Positions 2,673-20,775 of a stretch of DNA of 64,000 bases are shown here, piece by piece (position 1 is the stretch's first letter; each line of letters starts with the position of its first letter). The position numbers were made by a program, and so were the translations under genes. The notes beneath the pieces were generated by a model. That model was not told the DNA's origin, ran no database searches, and saw only the letters and a program-made list of their open reading frames with translations. Source of the stretch: Candidatus Saccharimonadota bacterium (lineage in GTDB: Bacteria > Patescibacteriota > Saccharimonadia > Saccharimonadales > 2-12-FULL-41-12); assembly GCA_022842995.1 (NCBI GenBank), contig JALHOM010000001.1:77985-141984 (forward strand). The letters run 5' to 3'.

Positions 2673-2753
2673 GAGACTTATATTTTACCCTAGTGATACA
2701 GGTTATGTATATACTACGTATTGTAGCACAATTTACTACAAAAGTCAACCCGC

Positions 2754-3467
2754 TTATGTCGTCCTTACTAGGGACAACAACGGAACTGAGAACAAATCTT
2801 CTTGATGACGAGAATCTAATTCAAAATTCCGACCAGCTTCTAGCCTCTTCTGAATTTTTTGACGCCTACGATTTTCTGAATATGCACCGCTTATAACTAG
2901 ACCTACGAAGGTTCCTACCGCGCCAACTGTCGCGGTAACTACACCGGCAACGGGCGATATTTCATATGCCACCGCAACTCCTACACCCGTCGAAACGCTG
3001 GATCCAATCCAATTTCCTGCAACAAGCCTATTTCTTGCCGACCGATTATGCTCTCCCTTTGTAGCGTACTGTGCCAATCCAGATTTTAAGGATTCATTAA
3101 TCTTTACTTCTTGGATTGCGGCCAATTGTTCAGTAGTATATTCTCCAGATCGTTGCGTAGTACCGATATTCAGATACAAGAGATGGTGATTGTCTTGAGC
3201 CGATGAAAGATGTCGTCTTGCGTTTCTCTTTTCTATTAGCTCAACGGAAAAACCATCGTCATATTGACAGTTTATTGCCCGGAGCGGCGTTACGAATTGT
3301 GAGCCATTCATGAAATTAACCATTTCCAGTACACGGCCCAATCTATCTATATCTGGAACTAATTGGAATTCAGCGTCATTAATTTTGTAATTAAGTGCTG
3401 GGAGAGTCAGTAGAGCGCCTGATCTTGGCAAGATTATTTCTTGACTGATTCGATCCGCACTACTCAT
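2754..3467 (-). CDS. hypothetical protein with a C-terminal Gly/Ala/Val-rich membrane segment
   Basis: 237-aa ORF with its own promoter-like site. Hydrophobic GSSVSTGVGVAVAYEISPVAGVVTATVGAVGTFVGLVISGAY near the C-terminus. No family recognised. Confidence 0.5.
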   Translation of the reverse strand: MSSADRISQEIILPRSGALLTLPALNYKINDAEFQLVPDIDRLGRVLEMVNFMNGSQFVTPLRAINCQYDDGFSVELIEKRNARRHLSSAQDNHHLLYLNIGTTQRSGEYTTEQLAAIQEVKINESLKSGLAQYATKGEHNRSARNRLVAGNWIGSSVSTGVGVAVAYEISPVAGVVTATVGAVGTFVGLVISGAYSENRRRQKIQKRLEAGRNFELDSRHQEDLFSVPLLSLVRTT

Positions 3468-3495
3468 AAGATTTTATAATTCCCTTTTGATCTCG

Positions 3496-3524
3496 AGTAT
3501 ACAATTTGCGTAAGTGTTTAACAA
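3496..3524 (-). promoter_or_regulatory. sigma-70-type promoter candidate for CDS 2754-3467
   Basis: Minus strand reads TTGTTA-N17-TATACT, about 30 nt upstream of the ATG at 3467. Confidence 0.35.
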
Positions 3525-3540
3525 CTATTTCTTCATCTTT

Positions 3541-3569
3541 TTCCATTATCAATAAAATGATTCTAAAAT
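3541..3569 (+). promoter_or_regulatory. weak promoter candidate for the plus-strand RNA locus
   Basis: TTCCAT-N17-TAAAAT on the plus strand, just upstream of the ORF-free repeat region. Confidence 0.25.
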
Positions 3570-3787
3570 AATACATGTCAGACGACTAAACTATCCGGAA
3601 TAGCGGGCATCTTATTAATCCACCACTCTAGACGTGTGCAGGCAGGCTATTTGGCGAGAACCTCAGGAGTGGACGTAATTTTGGGTGCGTCTGGCACGGA
3701 AACAGAGAAGATCCTACCTCCACCACCGACCGGCAAGAGCAGCGAGCCTAGCCTTTCAGTCCGTTAAACACCTGCGGGAAAACAGCC

Positions 3788-3866
3788 TTGTATGTGAGTG
3801 CAGTTTGGGTGAAGTTCGAGAACCGTAAACAGGGCGTACTCTAAGGTATGTCCTGTGCGGAAGCGC
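3788..3866 (+). repeat. 79-nt direct repeat, copy 1
   Basis: ttgtatgtgagtgcagtttgggtgaagttcgagaaccgtaaacagggcgtactctaaggtatgtcctgtgcggaagcgc. By eye, 76/79 identical to copy 2. Confidence 0.9.
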
Positions 3867-3951
3867 GCATTACCACAGGCCAAAAACGTATATATTTGAG
3901 TGCAGTTTGATTTTTTGGCGAGAACCGCAATCAACCACAGGCTGAAGACCG

Positions 3952-4030
3952 TTGTATGCGAGCGCAGTTTGGGTGAAGTTCGAGAACCGTAAACAGGGCG
4001 TACTCTAAGGTACGTCCTGTGCGGAAGCGC
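3952..4030 (+). repeat. 79-nt direct repeat, copy 2
   Basis: Same unit 164 nt downstream. The three differences are all T/C transitions. Confidence 0.9.
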
Positions 4031-4057
4031 AGAAATTCATTCAAAATGTGCCGCATA

Positions 4058-4081
4058 CAAGGGTCGATTAATCGACCCTTG
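4058..4081. terminator. perfect palindrome/hairpin spanning the rnj stop codon
   Basis: caagggtcga-ttaa-tcgacccttg with 10-bp arms. No clean U-run on either strand, so it may be a 3' stabiliser or terminator for rnj and/or the plus-strand RNA. Confidence 0.45.
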
Positions 4082-6218
4082 CGTCTTGGTTGAGTAGTTT
4101 CGCCCTCATCTTAGCAAACCGCTCCTGCAACTCTGCAGCCTCTTGCTCTGGAGATTTTTGACCTTGCGGCTTGGCGCCGCCGACATTTGGCCGGTTTTGA
4201 CCTTGCTGGCCCGTCGGCTTCATGTTTTGACCACCTACTTTGGCACCGCCAATGACATTTACTACCGGGATAACGATTGGACTTCGCCCTGTCTGCTCGT
4301 ACAAGAAATGCGTAACGTGTTCGCGCAGTTCGGCCTTAAATCTATCGAGATCAATCCGTTTAAAGCGCTGCGAAACAGCTCGTTTTAGCTCTGCCCGGAA
4401 GGCATTCATAAGCTCTTCTTGGTCCTTCATGTAGATAAATCCACGACTGATGATATCTGGGCTGGTCATCAACTGACCGGACTTCTTGTCAACCGTCAGA
4501 ACAACCGCCACCAGGCCTTCCTGCGAAAGCATCAAGCGATCCTTAACCACGATGTTGCTTACGATAGCGCCCGTTTGATCAACCAAAATTGTTCCATGCG
4601 GAGCAACACCGGCGATTTCCATCTTGTTGCCGTCGAGGGCAATAACCTCTCCGTTTTCAGCATTGATCGTGTTTTTACGAGGAATCCCCTCTTCCACAGC
4701 CGCCTCAATGTGACGCTGTTTCGACCGATACGAGCCATAAATCGGGATAAAGAATTTCGGCTGCGTCATCTGTATCATTTCTTTATATTCATCGATACTT
4801 GCATGGCCAGATACGTGAAGCGGCCCACAACCATCAAGGTCGCGTGTTTCGTGCCTATAGACATGAACACCTTTACGCATAAGATCATCTACCATGTTGC
4901 CGACAAGAGCGTCGTTACCAGACTCAGGAATTGGCGTTGAACTCAAAACCACGGTATCTTGTGGCTTAAGCTTGATATGCTTGTGATCCCCGGACGCCAT
5001 TCTCTGCAAAGCAGAGTTAGGCTCACCCTGACAACCAGTCGACACAACAACAATCTGTTCATCCTTCATACTGGCGACACTGGCGATGGGAACAATCGTG
5101 CCTTTCGGAATGCGTACAAAACCATGCCTCACAGCCATCTCGAGCGTACTAACCATGCTTCGTCCATCTAACGCGATTTTACGGCCATGATGTGACGCAG
5201 CGTTAATGATCATCTGGATACGGTTGACGTTGGTCGAGAACATAGCCATAAAGCAACGCCCAGGAGAATTTTCCATAATATCTATAAAGCTTTGTTCGAT
5301 AGTGCTCTCGCTCGGGGTACGGCCAGGACGTTCTGAAGTTGTGCTTTCGCTCAAAAGCGCCAAGACACCTTCTCGCCCAAGCTCGATCAATCGCTCTGTG
5401 TCACTGCGCTCGTGGTCGAGTGGGTTTGGATCAAGCCTAAAGTCTCCGGTGTTAATAATGCGTCCGACAGGAGTATCCAAGACAACACAGGTACTGCCGG
5501 GAATTGAGTGAGTAATTCGCACAAATTCTAGAGTAAATTCACCAATTTTCAGCCGTTCATGAGTGTTCTCGTTCATGGCGACGGTCTTGAGCTCAAAACC
5601 ATCTGGCATCGGCAGACCGAAGTTCTGGAAGATCTCTTCGACGCGACCGATACTAAATCGACTACCATATACCGGCGCCGGGTATAGCGGCATCATGTGC
5701 GGCAAACCACCAATATGATCAAGGTGGCCATGCGTAATAATATAAGCCCTGAGCTTGTGCTTAACACTGTCTAGATATGACATGTCGGCAATACCGTAGT
5801 TAATACCCGGCAAATCAACACCAAGATCTGAGCCACAGTCAATAATCACGACGTCATTTTTGTATTCAACTAAAATGGTGTTCTTTGAACCACCGCCGTC
5901 CATACCGCCAAGACCAATAATCTTGAGGCGTGGGCTATCGTCGATAAAGTTCGCGCGTCGCTGCTGTTCGCCACCGCCCGACTTGCTGTCGGCGTCTAGA
6001 TACTGACTGGCAATGCGAGTAGCATCTTCGGCATTACGTTTTTGGGCACGAATGGCTTCACCGCGACTTATAGCGCGCTTTTGCGGCTGGCCGTTCGGAG
6101 CGGCTTTATCGCCTCTGTTGTTTGGTCTTTTTCTATTATCTTTTGCTGGTGGCATGACAATTCTCCATGTCTTCTTGTCGTTTTTAGGACTAATTTCTTC
6201 AGCCCTACGTTTACTCAA
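4068..6218 (-). CDS. rnj: ribonuclease J (metallo-beta-lactamase/beta-CASP)
   Basis: 716 aa with motif HGHLDHIGG and a typical RNase J core. Basic N-terminal extension of about 100 aa and a Gln/Gly-rich C-terminal tail. Confidence 0.9.
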   Translation of the reverse strand: MSKRRAEEISPKNDKKTWRIVMPPAKDNRKRPNNRGDKAAPNGQPQKRAISRGEAIRAQKRNAEDATRIASQYLDADSKSGGGEQQRRANFIDDSPRLKIIGLGGMDGGGSKNTILVEYKNDVVIIDCGSDLGVDLPGINYGIADMSYLDSVKHKLRAYIITHGHLDHIGGLPHMMPLYPAPVYGSRFSIGRVEEIFQNFGLPMPDGFELKTVAMNENTHERLKIGEFTLEFVRITHSIPGSTCVVLDTPVGRIINTGDFRLDPNPLDHERSDTERLIELGREGVLALLSESTTSERPGRTPSESTIEQSFIDIMENSPGRCFMAMFSTNVNRIQMIINAASHHGRKIALDGRSMVSTLEMAVRHGFVRIPKGTIVPIASVASMKDEQIVVVSTGCQGEPNSALQRMASGDHKHIKLKPQDTVVLSSTPIPESGNDALVGNMVDDLMRKGVHVYRHETRDLDGCGPLHVSGHASIDEYKEMIQMTQPKFFIPIYGSYRSKQRHIEAAVEEGIPRKNTINAENGEVIALDGNKMEIAGVAPHGTILVDQTGAIVSNIVVKDRLMLSQEGLVAVVLTVDKKSGQLMTSPDIISRGFIYMKDQEELMNAFRAELKRAVSQRFKRIDLDRFKAELREHVTHFLYEQTGRSPIVIPVVNVIGGAKVGGQNMKPTGQQGQNRPNVGGAKPQGQKSPEQEAAELQERFAKMRAKLLNQDARVD

Positions 6219-6956
6219 TTAATTAATGTAGTTTCTTATGATCTGAAAGTCATCAAACAGGGTTTGCCGGAGGCTGCCGTTATATAATGCTGCCGCCGGA
6301 TGATACAGCGGAAGGATGACCATGGTCATGCTACCCGAGTTGCGAGGTGAACTCGCATCTTGGTCAGTATTTGAAGCCCTCTTCTTCGTTACGGGATCCG
6401 GTACTGCCTCGGCGTATTTTCCATACGCCTTAGTACGCTTCTCTCCGTCGCCTGGCATGTCGTCTCCGACAATATCCTGCCCGTATACAGGCGAGCTTCT
6501 TTCGAACACCTCAACTTCATGAGGTTGGCCATGGACCAGGGAGATCTGATTTTCGGGAAGGAAAAACTCCATACTGTGCCTGCCAAGCGTCACGACAACT
6601 CGCGGTTTGATAACTTTTAGCTCGCGAAGTAAGTACGGCCAAAACGCACGCTTCTCTTCAGGGAGAGGATCTCGGTTATTTGGCGGCCGATACTTCACGA
6701 TATTGGTAATGTACACGTCCTTGCGCTTAACGCCGTTTGCTTCGAGCATTTCATCTAGAAGTTTTCCGGCGGCGCCGACGAACGGAACCCCGTGCAGATC
6801 TTCGTTTTTACCTGGCGCTTCGCCGATAAATACTACTTCTGCCGTCGGGTTTCCATGGCCCATGACGAGCTGGGTCGCACCTTGAGCCAAATCTGGACAG
6901 ACATTATGTTGAATAATATCTGCCTTGATTTGATCAAGCTTTAGATCGTTTCCCAC
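6219..6956 (-). CDS. uracil-DNA glycosylase, family 4-like
   Basis: GEAPGKNEDLHGVPFVGAAGKLLDEML and LYHPAAALY motifs. The stop abuts the rnj start. Confidence 0.8.
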   Translation of the reverse strand: MGNDLKLDQIKADIIQHNVCPDLAQGATQLVMGHGNPTAEVVFIGEAPGKNEDLHGVPFVGAAGKLLDEMLEANGVKRKDVYITNIVKYRPPNNRDPLPEEKRAFWPYLLRELKVIKPRVVVTLGRHSMEFFLPENQISLVHGQPHEVEVFERSSPVYGQDIVGDDMPGDGEKRTKAYGKYAEAVPDPVTKKRASNTDQDASSPRNSGSMTMVILPLYHPAAALYNGSLRQTLFDDFQIIRNYIN

Positions 6957-7221
6957 CGGGTTGAATCTTCACTGGACTAGAATTGATTGCGCGAATCATT
7001 TCATACACCGTATTGGCCGCAAAGTAAGCGCTGGCGATTAACGCTAAATACACATACATTGAGCCGGTATCTATCGCGATAGAACCAAAGATATATACGG
7101 CTAAAAGCCACGCAACAGATAACAAGGCGTACTTCTGGCTTTTATCGGATTCGGGTTTCACAATCTGTTTTTTTGAAGAACTATTGGTTTTGGCAATTCG
7201 CTTGGTAGAATTACTTTTCAC
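6934..7221 (-). CDS. small two-TM membrane protein
   Basis: 95 aa with two hydrophobic helices. Short overlaps with both neighbours. Confidence 0.35.
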   Translation of the reverse strand: MKSNSTKRIAKTNSSSKKQIVKPESDKSQKYALLSVAWLLAVYIFGSIAIDTGSMYVYLALIASAYFAANTVYEMIRAINSSPVKIQPGGKRSKA

Positions 7222-9349
7222 GGGCTACTTCCTTCATGCTTAATTGTAGCCGACCTTTGTCGTCAATAGCTACTAATTTAACGTCCACCAGATCACCTTC
7301 CTTAACCACATCACTCGGCTTATTGACACGCTCTTCGCTCATCGCGCTGACGTGCACGAGACCATCTTTACCTGGCAAAATCTGTACGAAGGCGCCAAAA
7401 TCCATAACGCTCACCACAGGCACTTGGCGATATATTCTACCAACCTCTGGCTCTTCGGTGATGTTCTGCACCCATTTAATCGCGGCTTCGATACTTGCTT
7501 GGTCTGGGCTCGCGATCATAACCGTTCCGTCGTCTTTGATATCGATCTCGGCTCCGGTTTCGGCGATAATCTTGTTAATCATCTCACCGCCCTTACCGAT
7601 AACTTCTCGGATTTTGTCGGGGTTGATCTTGATAGCCTCGACACGCGGTGCATACGGGCTCATCGAATCACGGGGCGCCGGGATAACACTCAACATGTGG
7701 TCCAAAATCTTTCCACGGCCCTCTTTGGCCTGCGTTAAGGCTGCCCTCAGAACATCCACTGGTAAACCGTGAACTTTCATATCCATCTGGAGTGCCGTAA
7801 TACCTTCGGTGGTACCAGTCACCTTGAAGTCCATATCGCCAGCGAAATCTTCGGCGTCAGCAATATCACTCAAGATTATTGGTCGATCACCATCTAGCAT
7901 AAGTCCCATGGCGATACCGCTCACTGGTCGCTTCAGAGGTACACCCGCGTCCATCAAGGCCATAGTCGAAGAACAAGTAGCAGCCATAGAGGTACTACCG
8001 TTTTGGCTCATAATTTCGGTTACCGACCGAATAGCATACGGAAAATCAGCTTCGTCAGGCAACACTGCCGTCAATGCACGCTCTGCCAAATAACCGTGAC
8101 CAATTTCTCTTCGGCCAGGACTACCGAGTCGGCGAACTTCACCGACTGTCCAGCCTGGTGCATTGTAATGATGCAGGTAGCGACGCTCTTCGTCCTTTTC
8201 CATCGTATCTACGACCTGTGCGTAGCTGAGAGGCGCCAGAGTAACGATGTTCATAGCCTGTGTCATACCTCGTGTAAAAATACTCGAACCATGCGTACGC
8301 GGCAACACACTAACTTCGCTCGAAAGTGGACGAATTTCATCGAGTTTACGACCGTCAGGACGAATTCCCTCGGCCACAATACCGTCACGCACGTCTTTGT
8401 GTAGAGCTACGGTAAATGCATCGTCATAGGCCTGCCTGTGAGGCGCAAATTCTTCGTCACCGAGTTTTTCGCGGAAATACGCTTCCATGTCTTTGCGCAT
8501 ATCGCCGATCAGTTGATTGCGCTCTGGATAATGCTTGCGAAGGCTCATGCCCAACTTGCCATCAACCCACGCATCAACGGCAAACTGAATATCGGTATCT
8601 GGTTTCTGGACTGCATATTCTTGAGCTTCTACACCCACCTTGGCCATCAATTCTTGCTGCAGCTTGATGGCTGGCTGCATCATTTCCTGAGCAAAGGCGA
8701 TGGCATTGATAACTTCTTCTTCGGTGGCTTCATTTGCTCCTGCTTCGACCATCATGACACCGTTTTCGGTACCGGCTACCACGAGATCAAGCTTGCCGTT
8801 ATTCAGTTCTTCGGCGGTCATAAAGGCTTTGAATTCGCCATTTTCGTCCATACCAACGCGCAAACCAGCGACCGGACCCTCAAAAGGTGCTCCTGTCAGA
8901 CAAAAGGCTGCAGAGGTGGCAATCATAGCGATAACATCAGGTCGGAACGTCGGGTCAAGGCTGAGTACCGTAGCCACACCTTGCGCTTCGTGCCGATAGC
9001 CTTTTGGCCACAACGGACGAATAGGTCGATCTATCAAGCGACCGATCAAGACCGCGTCGTCACTCGGGCGCCCTTCTCTTTTAATAAAGCGCGAGCCGCT
9101 AATCTTACCGGCGGCGTACATTTTTTCTTCGTAATCAATACTCAGCGGAAAGTAGTCAAAGCCGTCGAGCGACTTATCGCTCACCATAGCCGTTCCTAAA
9201 ACTACTGTATCTCCGTAGCGAGCAATAACACTAGCACTGGAACGAAACCCAACGCGGTTCACTTCCAAGGTTAATGTTTTGCCACATAGCTCCGTCGAAA
9301 CAGAGACAATCTGCTTGCCGTATGGGTTAATGATCGAACTCATTATCAT
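7211..9349 (-). CDS. pnp: polyribonucleotide nucleotidyltransferase (PNPase)
   Basis: 712 aa with two RNase PH domains, KH (IGKGGEMINKI) and S1 (VVSVMDFGAFVQILPGKDGLVHVS). rpsO-pnp synteny. Confidence 0.95.
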   Translation of the reverse strand: MIMSSIINPYGKQIVSVSTELCGKTLTLEVNRVGFRSSASVIARYGDTVVLGTAMVSDKSLDGFDYFPLSIDYEEKMYAAGKISGSRFIKREGRPSDDAVLIGRLIDRPIRPLWPKGYRHEAQGVATVLSLDPTFRPDVIAMIATSAAFCLTGAPFEGPVAGLRVGMDENGEFKAFMTAEELNNGKLDLVVAGTENGVMMVEAGANEATEEEVINAIAFAQEMMQPAIKLQQELMAKVGVEAQEYAVQKPDTDIQFAVDAWVDGKLGMSLRKHYPERNQLIGDMRKDMEAYFREKLGDEEFAPHRQAYDDAFTVALHKDVRDGIVAEGIRPDGRKLDEIRPLSSEVSVLPRTHGSSIFTRGMTQAMNIVTLAPLSYAQVVDTMEKDEERRYLHHYNAPGWTVGEVRRLGSPGRREIGHGYLAERALTAVLPDEADFPYAIRSVTEIMSQNGSTSMAATCSSTMALMDAGVPLKRPVSGIAMGLMLDGDRPIILSDIADAEDFAGDMDFKVTGTTEGITALQMDMKVHGLPVDVLRAALTQAKEGRGKILDHMLSVIPAPRDSMSPYAPRVEAIKINPDKIREVIGKGGEMINKIIAETGAEIDIKDDGTVMIASPDQASIEAAIKWVQNITEEPEVGRIYRQVPVVSVMDFGAFVQILPGKDGLVHVSAMSEERVNKPSDVVKEGDLVDVKLVAIDDKGRLQLSMKEVAREK

Positions 9350-9394
9350 CTCATCCTTTCGATTGATCGCATCGATTCAGCTATACCGTTTTGT

Positions 9395-9425
9395 AAGTCT
9401 TTGCCACTCATTACGAGTAAGACTT
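9395..9425 (-). promoter_or_regulatory. hairpin in the rpsO-pnp leader
   Basis: Minus strand AAGTCTTACTC-gtaat-GAGTggcAAAGACTT, about 45 nt upstream of the pnp ATG. E. coli pnp has an autoregulatory leader hairpin; the analogy is only positional. Confidence 0.3.
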
Positions 9426-9646
9426 GATATACCTGCTTTCGGTGCGACCACTATTTGATCTTAGTCACTCTAGCACCTAATCATTATAGATTAGTTCGTT
9501 ATAAATGTGGGCAGAACTTGCATCTCTTTACACGCCTTAAGAGGTGAGCTCCGTAGAGAACGCACCATTTTTCATTTATTTTTACTTGGTGCTCTCATTT
9601 CGGTGCATTCGCCGCGTGGGTGAACGCACACCAATGAAAGTATCAA

Positions 9647-9913
9647 TTATCTTCTAATACCGAGCTTCTGGATCAAGTCGAGGTATTTTTGGCTGTCTTT
9701 TTCGGCAATATAACGAAGCAAGCGCTTGCGCTTACCTACCATTTGCAAAAGTCCACGGCGAGCCATGAAATCTTTTTTGTTCACTTTAAGATGCTCGGTA
9801 ACTTCAGTGATACGAGCAGTCAATATACCTACCTGTGCTTCAGGAGAGCCAGTATTTTTCTTGTCTTTAGCAAGATCGGCAACAATAGCCTGTTTTTTCT
9901 CAGATGTAATCAT
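9647..9913 (-). CDS. rpsO: 30S ribosomal protein S15
   Basis: MITSEKKQAIV...GSPEAQVGILTARI...RRGLLQMVGKRKRLLRYI. The start is taken at the internal Met, which gives about 88 aa. Confidence 0.9.
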   Translation of the reverse strand: MITSEKKQAIVADLAKDKKNTGSPEAQVGILTARITEVTEHLKVNKKDFMARRGLLQMVGKRKRLLRYIAEKDSQKYLDLIQKLGIRR

Positions 9914-9957
9914 TAGAAAGTAGGATATCACTTTATCCACAGGATTGCAAGATGATA

Positions 9958-10482
9958 TCAGGCTGTTTTTACGCCAGGAAGGACCATCATTCGAGTCCCT
10001 GGATCATTAATGGTACTCAGACTCACAGGGTCAAGATTTGGTAACCAAGGTTCTCTGTTTCCTATTTTGTGATCCAATAATTGAGCGGCAAGTTTTTCTA
10101 GTTGGCTGGCTTGCACACTATCAAACCCATCGGAAATCTCAGGATTTTGGCCTGGCGCATCCCCCAGCTTATAGCGTACAACAGGAACGGATTTAAAAAC
10201 TTGCACCAGACCATCGGCGCCTAGTTCAACATCAACAATATTTACCAATAATTCTTCACGGCCGTGCCCATCTTCTGTTTCTTCAGGTCGAATATATCGC
10301 CGAGCAATTACCGGCCTGACTTGGGGGTTCTCTTTTAAATCAACGTTCGTAGCGTTTTCTACAGAGCCGAGTACCCCCGACTGTCGTAGTTCTTTGGCGA
10401 TGACTAGCTGGACATCCAAAAGATCAAATCTCTGGTCTTGAATTGCTGGAATTTCTCGTTTTACTGTTTGTTTTTCTGGCAT
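9958..10482 (-). CDS. hypothetical protein
   Basis: 174-aa ORF with coding-like composition. No family recognised. Confidence 0.5.
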   Translation of the reverse strand: MPEKQTVKREIPAIQDQRFDLLDVQLVIAKELRQSGVLGSVENATNVDLKENPQVRPVIARRYIRPEETEDGHGREELLVNIVDVELGADGLVQVFKSVPVVRYKLGDAPGQNPEISDGFDSVQASQLEKLAAQLLDHKIGNREPWLPNLDPVSLSTINDPGTRMMVLPGVKTA

Positions 10483-10532
10483 TATGCAATAATTATATAT
10501 TACTTATGCTTATTTGTCAATTCTATTGTTAT

Positions 10533-11096
10533 CTAGAATAATCGCTCTTCTTCTCCGTAGGTCGGTTCCTGAGGCTCTTGGATATCAGGCTTTTCTGGTT
10601 TGGCATGTAGCATTTCACCAAGAGTTAATGACGTCATAAAGGGCGGCACCTCAAAGTAATTCCCTGGATTTTCGCAGGTACTTAATATAGCCACAAGAGG
10701 AATCGGGTAACCTTGGACGAATCGATAATAATCCGTCAAGCCAGGTTTTTCTTCATCTAAGAAACTACCCGCTAGATCTACTAGGCCTCTACCGACGGTT
10801 CGCAAACGGTGGATAGAATTGAAGTAATTTTCTAAACTTGACCCAAAAACGGCACGATCCGGACCTTCAGCCAAAGCCAACGCAACCTCAACTGCTTCAA
10901 GATGTCGTGCTTCAGCTTGCTCTGCATTATCCAGCGATGACCCCCACTGATGCTCCGGCAGTCCTGAGCCTCTTACCTCGAGCATCCTTAGTATGCTATT
11001 AAATGCCCGCTTAGATAGGTATTTATCCGACCCGTGAACTGGATTGTAATATCCGTTGGTTTTTAATTCTCCCATTGAGTTTGATGGTAGCAACAA
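10533..11096 (-). CDS. hypothetical protein
   Basis: 187-aa ORF. No family recognised. Confidence 0.5.
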   Translation of the reverse strand: MLLPSNSMGELKTNGYYNPVHGSDKYLSKRAFNSILRMLEVRGSGLPEHQWGSSLDNAEQAEARHLEAVEVALALAEGPDRAVFGSSLENYFNSIHRLRTVGRGLVDLAGSFLDEEKPGLTDYYRFVQGYPIPLVAILSTCENPGNYFEVPPFMTSLTLGEMLHAKPEKPDIQEPQEPTYGEEERLF

Positions 11097-20190: not shown

Positions 20191-20775
20191 CTAGAGACGG
20201 ACGCCAGAGACTGTTCGGTTGTAGTCTGGGATTTGGTCTCGAAACAGAGTGGCCACGAGGCCGCGGTTGCCACTAAAGTTGCCGTCAAGGTTGCCACAGC
20301 TAGATGACCATGAACGTTGCTTGTCGCCAGAGGTATAGCTCACGTCGTAGGCGTAGCGGACACCGGTTACGCAAGAAGCTTTTTCGTCGGTTTTGATCTC
20401 TGGGTTAATAGAAGTGAAACCGGCCGACTCAAGCGCAATAGTAAATGCTTGAAAAGCAGCAACGTTATTGCCAATGGACTTTGAAGAAATAACTTCCTCA
20501 TTATATCCACGGATAATTTCAATTTTGCGTTCGCTAGGAGTAACCGTAATCCGGATCGAACGACGATCTTCCTCGCCCACAACACTACCGATTTGCGTGT
20601 ACTGAACCTGAGCCCCGTCGGAGGAAAGATCGTTCTTTTTGACAGTTTGAGAGGCAGCTGTTTGGGCAACTTGTTCGTTACGATTCCCGCCTCGCAAAAT
20701 AGAGACGATCAACGCAATACCGCCAAAAAACACGACGGCAATAATCACCAAAACCAATATGTACCTCTTAGGCAT
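20191..20775 (-). CDS. hypothetical membrane-anchored protein
   Basis: N-terminal TM YILVLVIIAVVFFGGIALIVSIL followed by a soluble domain. Confidence 0.5.
   Translation of the reverse strand: MPKRYILVLVIIAVVFFGGIALIVSILRGGNRNEQVAQTAASQTVKKNDLSSDGAQVQYTQIGSVVGEEDRRSIRITVTPSERKIEIIRGYNEEVISSKSIGNNVAAFQAFTIALESAGFTSINPEIKTDEKASCVTGVRYAYDVSYTSGDKQRSWSSSCGNLDGNFSGNRGLVATLFRDQIPDYNRTVSGVRL

Follow-up and report, generated by a model that had tools for sequence, protein, structure and literature searches.

The structured region at 3541-4081 of the window, as we call the whole 64-kb stretch of DNA analysed here, is quite plausibly a local array built around one hairpin, module D (3945-4067, + strand). 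Judging from sequence comparison, we hold with moderate confidence that D is one member of an uncatalogued, sporadically distributed family of ~123-nt small structured RNAs in Saccharibacteria. The first-pass annotation had proposed a single RNA of ~0.5 kb, built from duplicated hairpin modules and read from the plus strand. The comparative data support both the duplicated modules and a conserved, structured-RNA-like element on the plus strand, but the conserved unit is one hairpin of ~123 nt, of which the closest genome at hand has a single copy. The repeats and hairpins were confirmed, while a proposed 5' domain and a GGAA-tetraloop hairpin were not.

All the genes flanking the region are encoded on the minus strand: ftsK (408-2672), a 237-aa ORF (ORF237, 2754-3467) and rnj (4068-6218), after which come a uracil-DNA glycosylase gene and then pnp, again on the minus strand. 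The RNase J protein of the window recovered 19 loci, 19/19 of them from Saccharibacteria MAGs. The ~600 nt before the rnj stop had been described as free of credible ORFs, and the ORF list agrees, with none longer than 56 aa in 3468-4067, up to the rnj stop codon at 4068. The local GC skew at the hairpin locus is opposite to that of the flanking genes. No tRNA or tmRNA genes were found in the 64-kb window, and no Rfam 15 family reached its gathering threshold anywhere in it, consistent with the earlier remark that the region matched no RNase P, tmRNA, SRP, 6S or riboswitch class. A permissive search of 3400-4200 (E <= 10) reported just sau-31, at 18 bits vs a gathering threshold of 50 (E = 8.7), and the members of the family described below in L018, L019 and L025 had no Rfam 15 match at E <= 1.

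Module D is the full form of the element, a long hairpin of ~123 nt and ~43-48 bp whose 3' end abuts the rnj stop codon (4068-4070). It folds at -67.3 kcal/mol on the + strand (z = -9.2) and at -48.5 on the - strand, and scores 139/129/126 bits with the covariance models (CMs). Sequence is conserved at AGYGCAG / AAUGUGC and in an internal loop, GAGAA / AAGCGCAG, and the apical CGUACU-loop-GGUACG is invariant. Module B (3781-3901, +) is a recent duplicate of D that arose within this genome. Over their first 86 nt the two modules form a direct repeat (3781-3866 vs 3945-4030) with 93% identity, while the 3' arm of B is unlike that of D in sequence and pairs only partially (35/43 pairs, many of them G-U). 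Module B (3781-3900) folds at -42.1 kcal/mol on + (z = -4.2) and at -20.4 on -, and scores 98/86/82 bits; 68 of 5000 random-substitution trials reached its observed pair retention. The 79-nt direct repeats first described here are therefore real and slightly longer than reported, and the differences within the 79-nt core are exactly three, all T/C transitions as originally read. An 11-bp hairpin described in each repeat (ACAGGGCGTAC/GTAYGTCCTGT) also exists, not as a separate unit but as the tip of the much longer hairpin. The neighbouring GGAA-tetraloop hairpin did not hold up, as GGAA is not conserved (GGAG in L018, GU-AU in L019), and a helix competing with it, CCGU/GCGG, covaries (ACGC/GCGU, AAA/UUU).

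Two further units are fragments in which only the leader, the 27-nt 5' core or both remain. Unit C (3869-3944, +) comprises a leader (ATTACCACAGG), a 5' arm and the core GTGCAG-N13-CGAGAACC at 3900-3926; it has neither the apical hairpin nor the 3' arm, and the CM rejects it as a full member. The leader of D (ATCAACCACAGG) follows the unit C core, at 3930-3941. Unit A (3636-3662, +) is an isolated copy of the same 27-nt core, and the next 110 nt are not recognisable as a family member (CM 2 bits; 3634-3780, z = +1.3). These are the shorter related units noticed earlier, and their common motif, GYGCAG-N13-CGAGAACC, was found in four copies, all on +, at 3636, 3798, 3900 and 3962, where 0.04 were expected in shuffles; there are zero further copies in the 64 kb. 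Tandem Repeats Finder reported no repeats, and the units are spaced irregularly, by 162, 102 and 62 nt. A Logan assembly of the same strain (L026) breaks inside D, within the region duplicated between B and D.

The genome L025, a JGI metagenome contig whose rnj protein is 94% identical, was the closest available for comparison. Positions 3918-10556 of the window align to L025 7229-597 with 79% nucleotide identity. Homology runs from ftsK to the stop of the orphan ORF and then begins again at window 3918 / L025 7229, while window 2759-3917 (ORF237, units A and B and part of C) is unrelated to L025 7230-8112, which encodes a 211-aa ORF. Module D sits in the conserved flank of this alignment, and L025 has exactly one copy of it, at 7083-7205(-), antisense to rnj and beside the rnj stop. 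A blastn comparison with 19 rnj loci of relatives gave no match. Conservation in relatives, named as a check in the first-pass annotation, applies to D and not to window 3468-3917, which is not homologous in L025. Module B is absent from L025, and the comparison indicates that it was duplicated after the split from that genome and that D is the ancestral, selected copy.

The comparison of D with its L025 ortholog shows 24 differences over 122 aligned positions, and 17 of these fall in paired columns. Even so, 41/43 pairs are intact vs 30.0 +/- 2.4 expected under random substitution, and 0/5000 trials reached 41. Compensatory changes from D to L025 include ACAGGGCGUAC/GUACGUCCUGU to GCCGGACGUAC/GUACGUUCGGC and, in the long stem, U-A to C-G. 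These counts argue that the hairpin has been kept in place by selection over the divergence of the two genomes. A perfect 24-nt palindrome, CAAGGGTCGATTAATCGACCCTTG, straddles the rnj stop codon at 4058-4081; it is terminator-like on + and overlaps the base of hairpin D at 4058-4065. The L025 counterpart (about 7065-7082) is still perfect, GGGTCGACTAGTCGACCC, even at its centre, because the change of the rnj stop from TAA to TAG is mirrored symmetrically by a T to C change. Symmetry is therefore kept where an RNA loop would not need it, which may reflect DNA-level symmetry or templated repair.

CM R1 was built only from module D, module B and the L025 ortholog. Its matches were L018 909-1031(-) in the rpsO-pnp gap, with 50.9 bits and E 6.5e-13 (CM E-values being rough here), and L019 4173-4294(-) in the ssb-rpsR gap, with 46.6 bits. 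The refined model, CM R2, added copies between ssb and rpsR in two close relatives of L019, at L037 15488-15609(-) and L039 9635-9756(-), and a second, strongly diverged L037 copy after ychF at 20535-20659(+), with 46.9 bits. The two copies in L037 lie 5 kb apart, within 21 kb, and are deeply diverged. In all, ~344 kb of Saccharibacteria DNA contained CM matches at four independent sites only, and the 64-kb window had no hairpin copy beyond the one locus, even with filters off. The isolated copies occupy gaps of 172-183 nt (rpsO-pnp, ssb-rpsR). Weak matches to the hairpin model were also seen on the sense strand at or near the uracil-DNA glycosylase gene, at L030 2686-2803(+) with 24.6 bits and L005 3684-3803(+) with 22.6 bits, and are probably chance or coding-region hairpins. 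In phage and plasmid collections, BLAST of 3541-4081 returned chance fragments only; a metagenome scan with AGYGCAGTTTG-N9-CGAGAACC gave 5 single chance matches, and scans of viral contigs gave 0.

Covariation was evaluated on 7 sequences from the four independent loci, in alignments fitted to the model's structure. In this alignment 88.1% of pair cells were paired, vs 67.7% in column shuffles and 33-46% when partners were slid by 1-3 columns; 30/43 pairs had changed on both sides, and 0/500 shuffles reached any observed covariation measure. Compensatory changes above controls, the generic mark of a structured RNA, were thus observed. Differences between module D and L019 fall in 25% of unpaired vs 56% of paired columns, and the alignment indicates that the loops and the apical helix are conserved in sequence while the stems covary. 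The segments AGUGCAG / AAUGUGC can pair with tandem G-U/U-G (83% of cells), the largest internal loop is 5 + 7 nt, and the unpaired segments of the hairpin are A-rich.

In most copies the hairpin is preceded, at a distance of 4-8 nt, by a leader resembling ATYAACCACAG. An outer helix pairing this leader with the antisense of the 3' end of the convergent gene was no better than shuffles (z -0.7 to +0.7). In three of the four host genes (rnj, ssb and ychF), a CAACC(A/T)(A/G)GA sequence occurs 20-40 nt before the stop, at window 4083-4094, L019 about 4140-4150 and L037 about 20693-20702. It resembles, in inverted orientation, the element's leader AACCACAG, and a leader-tail helix is statistically unsupported.

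The strand and position of the copies are strikingly regular. For all seven, the fold on the model strand is 12-22 kcal/mol more stable than that on the complement, and a five-sequence alignment has 23 G-U vs 3 A-C pairings, where A-C would be G-U on the other strand. At all four independent loci the copies are antisense to both neighbouring genes. The 3' end of each copy either directly adjoins the convergent gene's stop codon (0 nt) or reaches 1-4 nt into it; this gene is rnj in the window and L025, rpsO in L018, ssb in L019, L037 and L039, and ychF for the second copy in L037. Where the downstream gene is directly next (three loci, in L018, L019 and L037), its start codon lies 47-62 nt away. 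The preference for the plus strand put forward earlier was likewise borne out in the window itself, in module B as given above and for the whole region (z = -4.1 on + vs -2.2 on -). Together these comparisons indicate selection for the fold on the strand that is antisense to the genes on either side. The G-U asymmetry is not strict proof of RNA because a ssDNA hairpin also tolerates G-T pairs. A hairpin-encoded peptide was considered and rejected, since the ATG of the 41-aa ORF on the minus strand is lost in L025.

The abutment of stop codons could also be read from the other strand, with the element acting in cis as a sense-strand hairpin that stabilises or terminates the transcript after the rnj, rpsO, ssb or ychF stop, comparable to REP or ERIC hairpins or to the hairpin in the pnp leader. 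Every copy does begin at the upstream gene's stop codon, a strong hairpin also forms on the sense strand (-30 to -48 kcal/mol, z about -5 to -7), and relatives of L018 bear other long sense-strand hairpins at rpsO-pnp. We nevertheless consider this improbable. The antisense strand is more stable by the same 12-22 kcal/mol margin in every copy, almost all wobbles are G-U when read on that strand (23 vs 3), and the conserved tandem G-U/U-G would turn into A-C mismatches on the other. The sense strand also has no U-tract after the element, and the true sense-strand hairpins of L032, L035 and L036 show the opposite asymmetry.

Those long rpsO-pnp hairpins, at L032 6959-7146, L035 3330-3526 and L036 1781-1922, fold much better on the sense strand (-52 to -55 vs -28 to -40 kcal/mol) and are probably an rpsO terminator or a pnp autoregulatory leader. 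Short rpsO-pnp hairpins with the same base as the L018 element were also seen in L006, L011 and L014.

Transcription signals were less regular than strand and position. Consensus scans of the copies found no consistent promoter or terminator, and most copies have no U-tract terminator after the element. Upstream of the copies in L018 and L025 there is no convincing sigma-70-type promoter and no equivalent of the match at 3540-3569 described below; L019, L037 and the window have weak sigma-70-type matches only. In the window, this is TTTCCA-18-TAAAAT at 3540-3569 (+), a weak sigma-70-like match (9/12) that is divergent from the ORF at 2754-3467 and, by consensus match, the sole candidate start for a + strand transcript across all four modules.

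Bracketed by this promoter match and by the terminator-like palindrome at 4058-4081, the region might be expressed as the one ~0.5-kb structured RNA of the original proposal, about 3576-4085 (+), with a 5' domain and modules acting together. The whole-region fold (z = -4.1 on +) would also be in keeping with such a molecule, but the fold signal comes from modules D and B alone, while 3574-3700 (z = -1.1) and 3634-3780 (z = +1.3) fold like shuffles. The 5' domain that was to be closed by GCAGG/CCTGC and AGGCTA/TAGCCT falls in the latter segment, is not conserved in L025 and scores 2 CM bits. Furthermore, window 3468-3917 has no counterpart in L025, which keeps one module, and the other family members stand alone in 172-183-nt gaps. 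We therefore regard a functional 0.5-kb RNA as quite unlikely.

The array lies in a part of the genome that changes readily. In most relatives rnj is followed directly by ftsK, with a spacing of 40-250 nt, and the ftsK promoter (TTGACT...TACAAT) is conserved inside this gap. The rnj-ftsK gap is a variable hotspot because relatives have unrelated orphan ORFs or an rve-type insertion sequence there, and the whole segment with ORF237 and the hairpins is an insertion relative to most of them. The orphan ORFs downstream of rnj are 106-248 aa long and differ by genome (L006, L010, L011, L017, L018, L025, L028/L038, L030 and L032), and two contigs with an identical rnj protein differ in that one has the rve-integrase insertion sequence and the other does not. 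As a separate observation, the ftsK promoter, TTGAC(T/A)...TGCTA(C/T)AAT, is near-identical in the window (2700-2745, -) and in L002, L005, L007, L009, L016 and L019, genomes whose rnj proteins are just 70-85% identical.

ORF237 itself is an orphan. Only the protein itself was recovered among 5.8 billion clustered and 1.84 billion representative proteins, and Pfam, PADLOC and NCBIfam assigned no family, with weak membrane-segment matches only. Its C-terminus is a pair of hydrophobic helices with weak SLATT/LeoBC-like matches, and the AlphaFold single-sequence model was unusable (pLDDT 38). Repeated structured units adjoining an orphan with a two-helix membrane region, in a segment inserted as a whole relative to most relatives, could suggest that the RNA is a partner of this protein, as antitoxin or regulator in the manner of a type III toxin-antitoxin system. 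We judge this very improbable, given that the hairpin is tied to the end of rnj and in L025 lies beside the unrelated 211-aa ORF, while L018, L019 and L037 have the hairpin with no such ORF. The repeats are also irregular and divergent from ORF237, which has no homologue among the 1.84 billion representative proteins. A functional link between ORF237 and the hairpin is thus largely refuted by the comparative data.

The main rival to a small RNA family is a selfish interspersed palindromic DNA repeat of the MITE, REPIN or Rickettsia-palindromic-element type, which we consider possible although distinctly the less probable account. Its copies would form ssDNA hairpins mobilised by an enzyme encoded elsewhere, and the conserved loops would be recognition sites of that enzyme. 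Copies would survive only where they are harmless, after stop codons and in an orientation that does not terminate the operon. The distribution of the element is what such a repeat would predict: copies occupy non-syntenic sites between genomes, including the two that lie 5 kb apart in L037, and the closest relatives have no element at the same sites. There are partial local duplications in the window, whose rnj-ftsK gap is an insertion hotspot that also takes the rve-type insertion sequence, and the copies inside the rpsO-pnp and rpsF-ssb-rpsR clusters have neither room for nor a match to a promoter of their own. The way the copies have evolved argues in the opposite direction. The fold survives 24 substitutions between the window and L025, and purifying selection in situ is unexpected for decaying MITEs. 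The two copies in one genome, L037, are deeply diverged rather than near-identical, and no burst of similar copies was observed, with four independent sites in ~344 kb and one locus in the 64 kb. No target-site duplication or transposase was seen, the available empty sites being too distant for comparison at base level.

A small structured RNA family best fits the covarying stems, conserved loops, G-U asymmetry, in-place retention and diverged paralogues within one genome. Under this interpretation the element would be a gene for a small non-coding RNA that is transcribed towards the upstream gene and sits tightly against the stop codon of that gene. Such packing, with room only on the 5' side, would be expected of a convergent small gene in a compact genome, and the antisense orientation would spare the host operon from termination. 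The conserved internal loops, the tandem G-U/U-G in GUGCA/UGUGC and the invariant CGUAC/GUACG tip may be recognition sites for a protein partner, and the RNA could serve as a decoy, an RNP scaffold or the substrate of a double-strand-specific RNase. The four modules of the window might be carried on one transcript, from the promoter match at 3540-3569 to the palindrome at 4058-4081, although this would not be the conserved state. Spread by duplication or insertion is part of the proposal, and a patchy, multi-copy distribution would follow from it. The element is indeed missing at the orthologous sites of most close relatives, including the closest relatives of L018; because of this patchy absence it does not behave like a housekeeping RNA and fits a dispensable or mobile element. 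More speculatively, and with a low probability in our estimate, the family may be a self-propagating structured RNA gene of CPR bacteria, a protein-free unit of ~125 nt that places copies of itself at gene 3' ends, always in the convergent orientation. Selection would maintain it there because its transcript serves the cell or itself, for example by binding an RNA-processing enzyme or titrating it away.

The genomes of Saccharibacteria and other CPR bacteria are tiny and contain very little non-coding DNA, hardly any regulatory RNAs have been described from them, and our search of the literature on non-coding or palindromic elements in these groups found nothing relevant. An element that is fold-selected, multi-copy and always convergent at a stop codon is therefore either among the first lineage-specific small RNAs of the group or else represents a new type of small, palindromic mobile element of reduced genomes. 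In both cases, a covariance model from the family could be used across all CPR genomes, and the element offers a target for RNA-seq in cultivated TM7 strains.

Finally, we compared the element with known systems. REP/REPIN, ERIC (IRU), Correia/NEMIS, pneumococcal BOX/RUP and Rickettsia palindromic elements are interspersed palindromic repeats. Like them, the element is a single long imperfect hairpin of 100-150 nt that lies in intergenic gaps, typically just past stop codons, is patchy among relatives, and shows local modular duplication resembling the BOX A-B(n)-C arrangement. In contrast to them, no high copy number, target duplication or terminal-repeat signature beyond the stem was seen; its copies within one genome are deeply diverged, each keeping the fold; and its loops are more conserved than its stems, with strong G-U strand asymmetry and in-situ purifying selection. 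The 4.5S/SRP and 6S RNAs share the irregular hairpin of ~100-180 nt with conserved internal loops and covarying stems, yet 3400-4200 has no Rfam SRP or 6S match even at E <= 10, and the element is multi-copy and non-syntenic and is missing at the corresponding sites of close relatives. SRP RNA is marked by a GNRA tetraloop and domain IV loop motifs at its tip and by one syntenic copy per genome, whereas the GGAA of the element is neither at the tip nor conserved, and L037 has two copies and the window two to four. At 123 nt and with small internal loops, the element differs from 6S RNA, which is 150-200 nt long and has a large central bubble.

Sibling sRNAs such as Qrr, LhrC and PrrF have exposed seed regions and clear promoters and terminators. 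The element resembles them in having tandem units in one intergenic region and paralogues elsewhere in the genome, but it is almost fully double-stranded, and its promoter and terminator could not be assigned. The likeness to type III toxin-antitoxin arrays (ToxI/ToxN, CptIN, TenpIN) lies in structured-RNA direct repeats beside a protein gene in a variable island. Those arrays are regular, same-strand repeats upstream of a ToxN/AbiQ-type toxin, while here the spacings are irregular (162, 102 and 62 nt), the units are on + and the ORF is on -, and ORF237 is not a member of an endoribonuclease family and is not conserved with the RNA. The element is best placed as a new family within known kinds, a structured small RNA or an interspersed palindromic element, with two unusual regularities, its convergent orientation and its abutment of stop codons.
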